Counted from the stretch's first letter, positions 12,113 through 15,734 are shown. The stretch is DNA of 64,000 bases from Eledone cirrhosa (GCA_964016885.1 OZ024746.1:24490001-24554000); one strand, 5' to 3'. Program-made: numbers and translations. Notes: generated by a model from the sequence alone, not told the origin.

Positions 12113-12143
<31 letters not shown>

Positions 12144-12296
12144 ATAAATGCTCTGAAATAGCGATATATATGTGAATATAGACATAGAATATTCGAAAAT
12201 ATTCTGTATGTTTATAATAAACATTTTGAAGACCTAATCGCTATAGAATAGAATACGTCACGTATTACAATTAGATACTCGATAAAAGCAAGGGAA

Positions 12297-12339
12297 GTAA
12301 TCTACGCGTTTCATTCTCGTTAGAAATCATCAGGACTAC
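12297..12339 (-). ncRNA. Minimal type I hammerhead ribozyme (copy 1 of 11; others every +310 bp up to 15397-15439)
   Basis: Minus strand GUAGUC CUGAUGA U UUCU AACG AGAA U GAAA CGCG UA GAUUAC: 6-bp stem I, intact core, 4-bp stem II, palindromic stem III (ACGCGU), GUA triplet; predicted cut between 12303 and 12302. Confidence 0.9.
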
Positions 12340-15300
12340 ATATCCAGTGCTTTTATCGAGAATGACACAGCTAGAGACTTATAGAATACTTAGCTGTGTA
12401 CAGGAACTGGTTTGAAAGAGCGGTTGCCGGTCCGGCAGAAATTAGAAATTGGAATAAATGCTCTGAAATAGCGATATATATGTGAATATAGACATAGAAT
12501 ATTCGAAAATATTCTGTATGTTTATAATAAACATTTTGAAGACCTAATCGCTATAGAATAGAATACGTCACGTATTACAATTAGATACTCGATAAAAGCA
12601 AGGGAAGTAATCTACGCGTTTCATTCTCGTTAGAAATCATCAGGACTACATATCCAGTGCTTTTATCGAGAATGACACAGCTAGAGACTTATAGAATACT
12701 TAGCTGTGTACAGGAACTGGTTTGAAAGAGCGGTTGCCGGTCCGGCAGAAATTAGAAATTGGAATAAATGCTCTGAAATAGCGATATATATGTGAATATA
12801 GACATAGAATATTCGAAAATATTCTGTATGTTTATAATAAACATTTTGAAGACCTAATCGCTATAGAATAGAATACGTCACGTATTACAATTAGATACTC
12901 GATAAAAGCAAGGGAAGTAATCTACGCGTTTCATTCTCGTTAGAAATCATCAGGACTACATATCCAGTGCTTTTATCGAGAATGACACAGCTAGAGACTT
13001 ATAGAATACTTAGCTGTGTACAGGAACTGGTTTGAAAGAGCGGTTGCCGGTCCGGCAGAAATTAGAAATTGGAATAAATGCTCTGAAATAGCGATATATA
13101 TGTGAATATAGACATAGAATATTCGAAAATATTCTGTATGTTTATAATAAACATTTTGAAGACCTAATCGCTATAGAATAGAATACGTCACGTATTACAA
13201 TTAGATACTCGATAAAAGCAAGGGAAGTAATCTACGCGTTTCATTCTCGTTAGAAATCATCAGGACTACATATCCAGTGCTTTTATCGAGAATGACACAG
13301 CTAGAGACTTATAGAATACTTAGCTGTGTACAGGAACTGGTTTGAAAGAGCGGTTGCCGGTCCGGCAGAAATTAGAAATTGGAATAAATGCTCTGAAATA
13401 GCGATATATATGTGAATATAGACATAGAATATTCGAAAATATTCTGTATGTTTATAATAAACATTTTGAAGACCTAATCGCTATAGAATAGAATACGTCA
13501 CGTATTACAATTAGATACTCGATAAAAGCAAGGGAAGTAATCTACGCGTTTCATTCTCGTTAGAAATCATCAGGACTACATATCCAGTGCTTTTATCGAG
13601 AATGACACAGCTAGAGACTTATAGAATACTTAGCTGTGTACAGGAACTGGTTTGAAAGAGCGGTTGCCGGTCCGGCAGAAATTAGAAATTGGAATAAATG
13701 CTCTGAAATAGCGATATATATGTGAATATAGACATAGAATATTCGAAAATATTCTGTATGTTTATAATAAACATTTTGAAGACCTAATCGCTATAGAATA
13801 GAATACGTCACGTATTACAATTAGATACTCGATAAAAGCAAGGGAAGTAATCTACGCGTTTCATTCTCGTTAGAAATCATCAGGACTACATATCCAGTGC
13901 TTTTATCGAGAATGACACAGCTAGAGACTTATAGAATACTTAGCTGTGTACAGGAACTGGTTTGAAAGAGCGGTTGCCGGTCCGGCAGAAATTAGAAATT
14001 GGAATAAATGCTCTGAAATAGCGATATATATGTGAATATAGACATAGAATATTCGAAAATATTCTGTATGTTTATAATAAACATTTTGAAGACCTAATCG
14101 CTATAGAATAGAATACGTCACGTATTACAATTAGATACTCGATAAAAGCAAGGGAAGTAATCTACGCGTTTCATTCTCGTTAGAAATCATCAGGACTACA
14201 TATCCAGTGCTTTTATCGAGAATGACACAGCTAGAGACTTATAGAATACTTAGCTGTGTACAGGAACTGGTTTGAAAGAGCGGTTGCCGGTCCGGCAGAA
14301 ATTAGAAATTGGAATAAATGCTCTGAAATAGCGATATATATGTGAATATAGACATAGAATATTCGAAAATATTCTGTATGTTTATAATAAACATTTTGAA
14401 GACCTAATCGCTATAGAATAGAATACGTCACGTATTACAATTAGATACTCGATAAAAGCAAGGGAAGTAATCTACGCGTTTCATTCTCGTTAGAAATCAT
14501 CAGGACTACATATCCAGTGCTTTTATCGAGAATGACACAGCTAGAGACTTATAGAATACTTAGCTGTGTACAGGAACTGGTTTGAAAGAGCGGTTGCCGG
14601 TCCGGCAGAAATTAGAAATTGGAATAAATGCTCTGAAATAGCGATATATATGTGAATATAGACATAGAATATTCGAAAATATTCTGTATGTTTATAATAA
14701 ACATTTTGAAGACCTAATCGCTATAGAATAGAATACGTCACGTATTACAATTAGATACTCGATAAAAGCAAGGGAAGTAATCTACGCGTTTCATTCTCGT
14801 TAGAAATCATCAGGACTACATATCCAGTGCTTTTATCGAGAATGACACAGCTAGAGACTTATAGAATACTTAGCTGTGTACAGGAACTGGTTTGAAAGAG
14901 CGGTTGCCGGTCCGGCAGAAATTAGAAATTGGAATAAATGCTCTGAAATAGCGATATATATGTGAATATAGACATAGAATATTCGAAAATATTCTGTATG
15001 TTTATAATAAACATTTTGAAGACCTAATCGCTATAGAATAGAATACGTCACGTATTACAATTAGATACTCGATAAAAGCAAGGGAAGTAATCTACGCGTT
15101 TCATTCTCGTTAGAAATCATCAGGACTACATATCCAGTGCTTTTATCGAGAATGACACAGCTAGAGACTTATAGAATACTTAGCTGTGTACAGGAACTGG
15201 TTTGAAAGAGCGGTTGCCGGTCCGGCAGAAATTAGAAATTGGAATAAATGCTCTGAAATAGCGATATATATGTGAATATAGACATAGAATATTCGAAAAT

Positions 15301-15396
15301 ATTCTGTATGTTTATAATAAACATTTTGAAGACCTAATCGCTATAGAATAGAATACGTCACGTATTACAATTAGATACTCGATAAAAGCAAGGGAA

Positions 15397-15439
15397 GTAA
15401 TCTACGCGTTTCATTCTCGTTAGAAATCATCAGGACTAC
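15397..15439 (-). ncRNA. Minimal type I hammerhead ribozyme (copy 11 of 11)
   Basis: Same sequence as 12297-12339. Confidence 0.9.
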
Positions 15440-15642
15440 ATATCCAGTGCTTTTATCGAGAATGACACAGCTAGAGACTTATAGAATACTTAGCTGTGTA
15501 CAGGAACTGGTTTGAAAGAGCGGTTGCCGGTCCGGCAGAAATTAGAAATTGGAATAAATGCTCTGAAATAGCGATATATATGTGAATATAGACATAGAAT
15601 ATTCGAAAATATTCTGTATGTTTATAATAAACATTATAATTC

Positions 15643-15734
15643 TATTCTATTCTATAGCGATTAGGTCTTCAAAATGTTTATTATAAACATACAGAATATT
15701 TTCGAATATTCTATGTCTATATTCACATATATAT
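15643..15734 (+). repeat. Inverted terminal fragment of the 310-bp unit
   Basis: Reverse complement of unit segment atatatatgtgaatatagac...ctatagaatagaata; merges into (TA)n. Confidence 0.9.

Follow-up and report, generated by a model that had tools for sequence, protein, structure and literature searches.

An array of hammerhead ribozyme units in Eledone cirrhosa is one insertion of a dispersed retrozyme, with a shape that points to one-step copying from a small, probably circular RNA

The window analysed here is a stretch of 64,000 nucleotides of Eledone cirrhosa DNA, and it holds a tandem array set into a (TA)n microsatellite. The left half of this target (unstranded) covers 12008..12139, and its last AT is common to the element. 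The long, tailed end lies at 12138..12171 on the minus strand. It comprises unit positions 309-32 and corresponds to the PLE 'tail' between two inferred RT start sites, as defined in PMC8557442 and PMC11167929. An internal (AT)4 tract at 12164-12171, inside the tailed end, marks the second start site. Eleven 310-bp units make up the long arm (12140..15549), whose RNA sense is the minus strand, and a partial 12th unit on the same strand (positions 1-86, 15550..15635) forms its inner end. An unstranded joint of 7 bases (15636..15642) is followed by a short inverted arm of 92 bp on the plus strand (15643..15734), which runs from unit position 116 to 25 and ends tail-less in the (AT)4 tract. The right half of the (TA)n target occupies 15727..16085 (unstranded).

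The original prediction of eleven identical units that encode no protein is borne out. No position in units 1-11 (12140-15549) differs from unit 1, and the longest stop-free frame in a unit multimer has 59 aa (30 aa when started by Met). GC content is 0.34-0.35. The array had been placed at 12138..15734. The 310-bp period does run from 12138 to 15635, but the last 99 bases are the joint and the inverted arm rather than unit sequence. That prediction took no account of the PLE-type ends, the choice of (TA)n as target, the inverted arm or the ~17,400 further units elsewhere. The window also holds a 70-bp minisatellite at 5691-10843 (72.7 copies, strongly C/A-skewed).

Every unit carries a type I hammerhead on the minus strand, at 12297..12339 in unit 1 and every 310 bases thereafter. 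It has a stem I of 6 bp, the core CUGAUGA, GAAA and the palindromic stem III ACGCGU. By descriptor, 11/11 units read GUAGUC-CUGAUGA-UUUCUAACGAGAAU-GAAA-CGCG-UA^GAUUAC, and the predicted cut follows GUA (12303/12302 + n*310). The base of stem II is U-U in place of the usual G-C. The same descriptor, which is a loose one, has a background rate of 28 matches in 20,000 shuffled units. A search with the Rfam hammerhead model, which had been proposed as a check, gave no match. Nothing reached the gathering score within the window, and no hammerhead was found among the 17 Rfam matches at E<=10 in 11500-12800.

The hammerhead can also be judged by covariation. The array family, A, has sister retrozymes B1, B2 and C of 311-319 nt, with 2,180 pattern matches (L103, L108-L137; assembly searches), and their alignment with A spans the full unit. 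Families B and C are older than A and mostly have 1-2 units per locus; C is about 90% identical. The sisters have the same tail and hairpins and other hammerheads (a U3-A8 core in B1; a longer palindromic stem III). When A, B1, B2 and C are set against a specified structure, itself derived from the first row of the alignment, 93.5% of cells pair and 19/48 pairs have changed on both sides, among only about 4 independent lineages. Controls with the structure slid along give 36-41% pairing. Among the doubly changed pairs are C3-G8, which becomes U3-A8, and pairs of stem I, stem II, the extended stem and two hairpins. The extended stem I of 11-13 bp closes the hammerhead domain (12278..12360, minus strand; 12278-12288 pairs with 12350-12360), and both sides have changed at 7/11 of its pairs across the related families. 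The core UUGAUAA of family B was considered as a decayed hammerhead, and this is ruled out, since it is the compensatory U3-A8 pair. The prediction of a complete minus-strand hammerhead in each unit, cut at 12303/12302, thus stands on the descriptor in 11/11 units and on covariation. In the RNA, two small hairpins (12208-12224 and 12186-12205, together 12186..12224, minus strand) immediately precede the short RT start site on its 5' side. Both are kept in families A, B and C through compensatory changes, and they may be a signal for the PLE protein.

Other elements in the region have hammerhead-like motifs too. At least six further type I motifs, of other families, lie in the 64-kb window (938-1002, 19416-19464, 19976-20014, 41082-41141, 54936-54984 and 56105-56153). 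Several are inverted pairs beside (TA)n, and stem II of the 19416 motif closely resembles that of the array. An element with inverted ends at 11570-11935 sits between two (TA)n tracts. It has 38-bp inverted repeats (11570s/11895-11935) and contains a SINE-like piece as well as, near 11760-11830, a motif resembling a hammerhead. A tandem element of ~400-480 nt with a hammerhead-like core occurs at two other loci (L038 3630-4230 and L047); one of its copies follows immediately on the endonuclease end of a PLE.

Dimer cleavage by hammerheads is already known (PMC4209133). It had been claimed here that neighbouring units supply the dimer partner through ACGCGU, and predicted folding energies support this. 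For two units the dimeric hammerhead fold has -104.7 kcal/mol and two monomeric hammerheads have -92.5, a difference of 12 kcal/mol in favour of the dimer, while the free optimum is -105.9. In a circular monomer the active fold is predicted to cost 6.7 kcal/mol. Since the dimer fold is near the free optimum and the active fold is costly in the circle, dimers should cut and circles should last, as far as modelled energies go. It must be noted that 8/9 Xenopus retrozyme dimers did not cleave in vitro (bioRxiv 10.64898/2026.07.22.740005). Genome-wide, ten core positions are changed in 112/17,424 units and ten control positions in 160/17,569 (0.64% vs 0.91%; the units are not independent). Core conservation goes in the expected direction and is weak.

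The core pattern matches 17,438 times across the 3.0-Gb assembly (control 0), and unit matches lie on many contigs at 95-100% identity. With a mean insertion of ~3.0 kb, arithmetic gives about 1,800 insertions and ~5.4 Mb, or 0.18% of the assembly. There are 870 exact (AT)n+tail junctions (control 0) and 890 tail-less (TA)n junctions (control 15), counts that select for (TA)n by their search pattern. A TA-rich tract borders one or both ends in the window and at 20/20 loci of the first genome search. The window array is one insertion of a young, dispersed non-LTR retrozyme and not a local satellite. An ordinary satellite grown in place would have few loci, phase-random ends and no fixed termini, and it is ruled out by fixed outer ends at ~1,800 dispersed loci. 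On contig C14 (L101, L102) higher-order blocks of array plus (TA)n are repeated over long stretches.

The unit was also found in 20 public sequencing runs under 18 organism labels, none listed as RNA. Four were examined. Each has one contig with the unit, at depth 2.7-9.6 and 99%+ identity, in DNA or material of undeclared kind. We do not read this as horizontal transfer; the contigs are probably trace DNA of the host, which would give such low depth and 99%+ identity. The window units are 100% identical, which is what a collapsed or over-polished repeat in the assembly would also look like. However, each locus has its own haplotype, joint and flanks, and the head-to-tail unit joint is present in contigs of 4/4 examined runs. 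An assembly artefact is hardly credible.

The first 20 loci of the genome search are biased to the A138 variant of the window, so an unselected set was used for insertion anatomy instead. It consists of the 40 places after the first 30 in the list of 870 exact (TA)n+left-end junctions, and these held 41 insertions. Two inverted arms are present in 39/41 and one arm in 2/41. One outer end is at unit position 309, in this set by selection. The other outer end stops tail-less at unit position 25, in the (AT)4 tract, in 38/38 insertions with that end in view. G33 is missing from 24/38 of these ends, as pairing between the RNA and TA repeats of the target at this point would predict. The tail at the long end has 26-35 bp. 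On contig C1, with 89 long and 100 short junctions, a long end faces a short one in 48 pairs within 15 kb, and no long-long or short-short pair occurs in that range; beyond 15 kb one long end faces two long ends. The window has the same layout as the sampled insertions: (TA)n, tailed long arm, joint, tail-less inverted arm, (TA)n.

The inner ends behave differently from these fixed outer ends. They are uniform over the unit (KS p=0.36, unselected set), and the 37 inner joints show an overlap of 1-22 bases in 23, a blunt junction in 1 and extra bases in 13. A preferred arm stop at unit position 138, where many arms of the first genome search ended, was considered and rejected as ascertainment. 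The base at this position is A in all 11 window units but T in most of the family, and the A is provided by a (TA)n junction; inner ends of the unselected set are uniform. Arms average 1.5 kb and reach 5.5 kb, with up to 18 full units. The lengths of the two arms correlate (Spearman 0.42, p=0.008, n=39); among the 15 insertions without single-unit variants the value is 0.24 (p=0.40).

This anatomy is the Penelope signature: an inverted 5'-truncated copy, a tail at one end and a bias to (TA)n. It resembles EN+ PLEs of the Neptune/Naiad type (Craig et al. 2021, PMC8557442), which have a (TA)n target, an inverted 5'-truncated arm and a 30-40-bp tail at one end. It also resembles the anole Poseidon (Frangieh et al. 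2024, PMC11167929), where there are two internal RT start sites and both target strands are extended. In vitro, purified protein of the anole PLE cleaved and extended both strands of the target, using two internal sites in the RNA that delimit the tail. There are differences too. Unlike autonomous EN+ PLEs the array unit has no ORF, and its arms hold up to 18 full units. The strict pairing of a tailed with a tail-less end is quantified here, whereas in vitro the anole PLE showed no difference in start site between the strands (PMC11167929). The short start in Eledone uses microhomology between target and RNA, whereas the anole start site is not homologous to the target, according to the same paper.

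An autonomous PLE lies in the same (TA)n field of the window as a separate, 5'-truncated insertion (16094..18709, plus strand). Its open frame (16208-17617, plus strand) has a YRDD RT motif, a CxC/CPLxxxC linker (zinc-finger) and a GIY-YIG-like end. It has its own hammerhead at 18604-18668 and its own inverted arm at 16094-16245, with an unusually long tail of ~85 bp. We take its protein to be of Neptune type from its motifs, some of them given in PMC8557442, and from Atlas neighbours that have HTH_animal, GIY-YIG and RVT_1. Pfam and PDB searches returned no match for the protein. The family of this PLE is young, with 821-aa open frames and many near-identical copies in the assembly (window; L104-L107, L071-L100), so autonomous PLEs would appear to be active in this genome. 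As a positive control for insertion anatomy, it has one long and one short end in 8/8 loci with both ends in view. As a source of the unit it is rejected: there is no blastn similarity, and tail and hammerhead differ. A broken second PLE at 26982-28129 (minus strand) has a protein ~50% identical to this family. An autonomous PLE that shares the ends of the unit was found at 0/71 tailed junctions and 0/30 family-B loci examined. At sampled rather than all genomic loci, families B and C and 11 PLE 3' regions revealed no partner either.

What was the template of the arrays? Variants can be used to argue this. The variant set has 62 insertions with 509 units: the 41 unselected insertions, 19/20 loci of the first search (the compound locus L031 was dropped), the window and L104. 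It contains 67 single-unit variants, or 4e-4 per base. Of 48 insertions with at least 4 units, 10 have a variant that is absent from the other sampled insertions yet fixed in every unit, in both arms where covered; such a variant is private among 62 of ~1,800 insertions. In L154, 76A is present in 11/11 and 14/14 units of the two arms, and in the window A138 is fixed throughout. There are 21 haplotypes among the 48 arrays. In the zone covered by both arms, 0/39 non-fixed variants are mirrored between them (L149, L031 and L036 left out), where arithmetic gives about 30 if an inherited load had ridden on mixed multimer templates. Variants that are fixed through both arms, with none mirrored, argue for a monomer that was copied repeatedly, most simply a circle.

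One can imagine the same element and the same two-ended PLE insertion with a different template, namely an uncut linear multimer from an existing array, with a slow or passenger hammerhead. Core conservation is weak, as this would have it. Hammerhead mutants left insertion by the anole PLE unaltered in vitro, so cleavage was not needed there, and no reads ended at the cut site (PMC11167929). L149 (contig C1, 136.72 Mb) is a mosaic of two haplotypes, arranged X,X,Y in each arm when followed inwards from its outer end. It does not fit a pure circle and calls for either a linear template of mixed units or template switches that are coupled. However, copying of a linear multimer alone can only shorten arrays. 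It would pass variants on singly and mirrored, and it cannot fix a new variant in all units, so monomer copying fits the 10/48 arrays, the 21 haplotypes and the 0/39 mirrored variants better. We consider the multimer template unlikely.

A cleaved linear monomer is less likely still. Here the RT would jump from the 5' end to the 3' end of the same or another molecule with no covalent circle. Intramolecular jumps would give the same homogeneity, the extended stem I holds both ends together, and L149 would be accounted for by an occasional intermolecular jump. Against this, the cut-site junctions are precise in ~500 units, with no scars beyond subfamily-wide 1-base insertions, and this is easier to reconcile with a closed circle than with end-to-end jumping. 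A pool of 21+ haplotypes should also yield many mosaics, and a clear haplotype switch is seen in 1/41 unselected insertions.

There is also the scenario of the 2026 preprint on vertebrate retrozymes, where a monomer or short pLTR fragment inserts and then expands locally by unequal crossover or slippage. Some arrays do resemble later duplications. L040 (1004-5151) has a period-4 variant pattern in one array and L028 has patchy variants. The arrays on C14 are rearranged into a higher order; its blocks and the L040 pattern look like later duplication or oligomeric templates. But both inverted arms would have to expand independently in nearly every very young insertion, and they end at random unit positions. 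It is the older families, B and C, whose arrays are short, and within family A array age is not significantly related to length (rho -0.15). Local expansion as the general route is very improbable.

We therefore return to repeated copying of a monomer and argue, with somewhat better than even confidence, that the array is a non-autonomous PLE non-LTR retrozyme whose dimer-cut monomer is circularised, primed at two ends by a PLE and copied repeatedly, so that arrays are born long. The arrays would be transcribed on the minus strand, neighbouring hammerheads would pair via ACGCGU and cut every 310 nt, and the monomer would be closed to a circle, where a lone hammerhead is disfavoured. A PLE protein made elsewhere would then cut both strands of a (TA)n tract. 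Judged by the anatomy, both DNA ends would prime cDNA on one RNA, at two fixed internal sites separated by ~30 nt, and one of these starts would be aided by pairing of target TA repeats with the (AU)4 tract of the RNA. The variant patterns suggest that each polymerase re-copies the same monomer, most simply round a circle, for 0.1-18 turns. Last, as the joints indicate, the two cDNAs would be fused at random positions in the unit, through short microhomology or with a few added bases. The outcome would be (TA)n, tailed arm > < tail-less arm, (TA)n. By this route arrays would be born long and not grown by unequal crossover. Several points go against the proposal: the L149 mosaic, variants in some but not all units in 6/62 insertions (and one in L157 fixed in one arm only), a small sample, slight core conservation and no partner PLE found. 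More tentatively, and at rather less than even confidence, we suggest that two RTs of a PLE dimer, primed from one break, start 30 nt apart and chase each other round the same 310-nt ribozyme circle. The two RTs would even switch template together, as in L149.

Much of this has precedent. The array has tandem non-coding units, GC <45%, a hammerhead per unit and a dispersed mobile family, and by these sequence features it can be classed as a non-LTR retrozyme. The prediction of a retrozyme-like hammerhead array gains support from folding, covariation and spread as a mobile family. Metazoan non-LTR retrozymes of newt, axolotl, coral and mussel likewise have 170-400-nt non-coding tandem units, type I hammerheads, GC <45% and a short palindromic stem III, and axolotl HHR_Amex2 shares the U-U at the base of stem II (Cervera and de la Pena 2020, PMC7229834). 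The same cycle was proposed there: cleavage, circularisation and copying by a PLE RT to tandem cDNA. Expression and circles were shown for metazoan retrozymes, whereas the Eledone array is described here from genome sequence. In that paper the rolling-copy and PLE steps are hypotheses, and the sections drawn on do not describe inverted arms, tails or a target preference. Multimeric copying of circles is a published model (PMC7229834, PMC7761336). Li, Clavereau, Pollet 2026 (bioRxiv 10.64898/2026.07.22.740005) already state in their title that retrozymes are non-autonomous PLEs, and they reach the same conclusion on origin for elements with similar unit sizes and repeat numbers. They argue from co-occurrence and pLTR similarity in vertebrates and invoke unequal crossover, whereas we argue from insertion anatomy that arrays are born long. 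No autonomous partner with a similar pLTR was found for the Eledone unit at the examined loci. Non-autonomous Chlamys PLEs such as MRC1 of Chlamydomonas are also non-coding, PLE-mobilised and inserted in multiple head-to-tail copies (PMC8557442). Unlike the Eledone unit, the Chlamys clade is mostly without hammerheads, and the 3' sequence of its elements is also that of an autonomous family already known. Multicopy insertions of the ribozyme-less MRC1 lower the odds that the hammerhead is required.

The unit had not been recognised as a described family. Our search of the literature on cephalopod retrozymes, hammerheads and Penelope found no description of this family; a Repbase/Dfam consensus is conceivable. 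Its novelty was overrated all the same, since the class and the Penelope link are published. In openly accessible articles on the mechanism we found no variant-based test of rolling copying. The retrozyme class, the PLE link and the rolling-copy model are already known; the 310-nt family and the variant-based test of the model are apparently new. That a family of ~5.4 Mb is invisible to Rfam implies that similar families are probably filed as satellites elsewhere.

The value of these loci lies in their anatomy: each tailed end is strictly paired with a tail-less one, both arms stem from one template, and variants are fixed. The insertion shapes are unusually direct genomic evidence for single-step writing of an array by a Penelope-type RT, which starts at both ends of a break and copies a small RNA that was probably circular. 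A young high-copy family makes it testable whether retrozyme arrays arise by reverse transcription of circles, the model in PMC7229834 and PMC7761336. The same holds for the mechanism, described as undefined in PMC8557442, by which Penelope elements insert in tandem and inverted form with a tail on one side. The variant-fixation and mirror tests need a genome only and are applicable to all insertions. If two coupled RTs do chase each other round one circle, then ~1,800 insertions would be fossils of single events and the first genomic demonstration of arrays written from circles. The PLE tail and inversion would be explained as the fixed geometry of a two-enzyme complex, and the unit would be a natural non-coding RNA cargo for PLE-mediated insertion.
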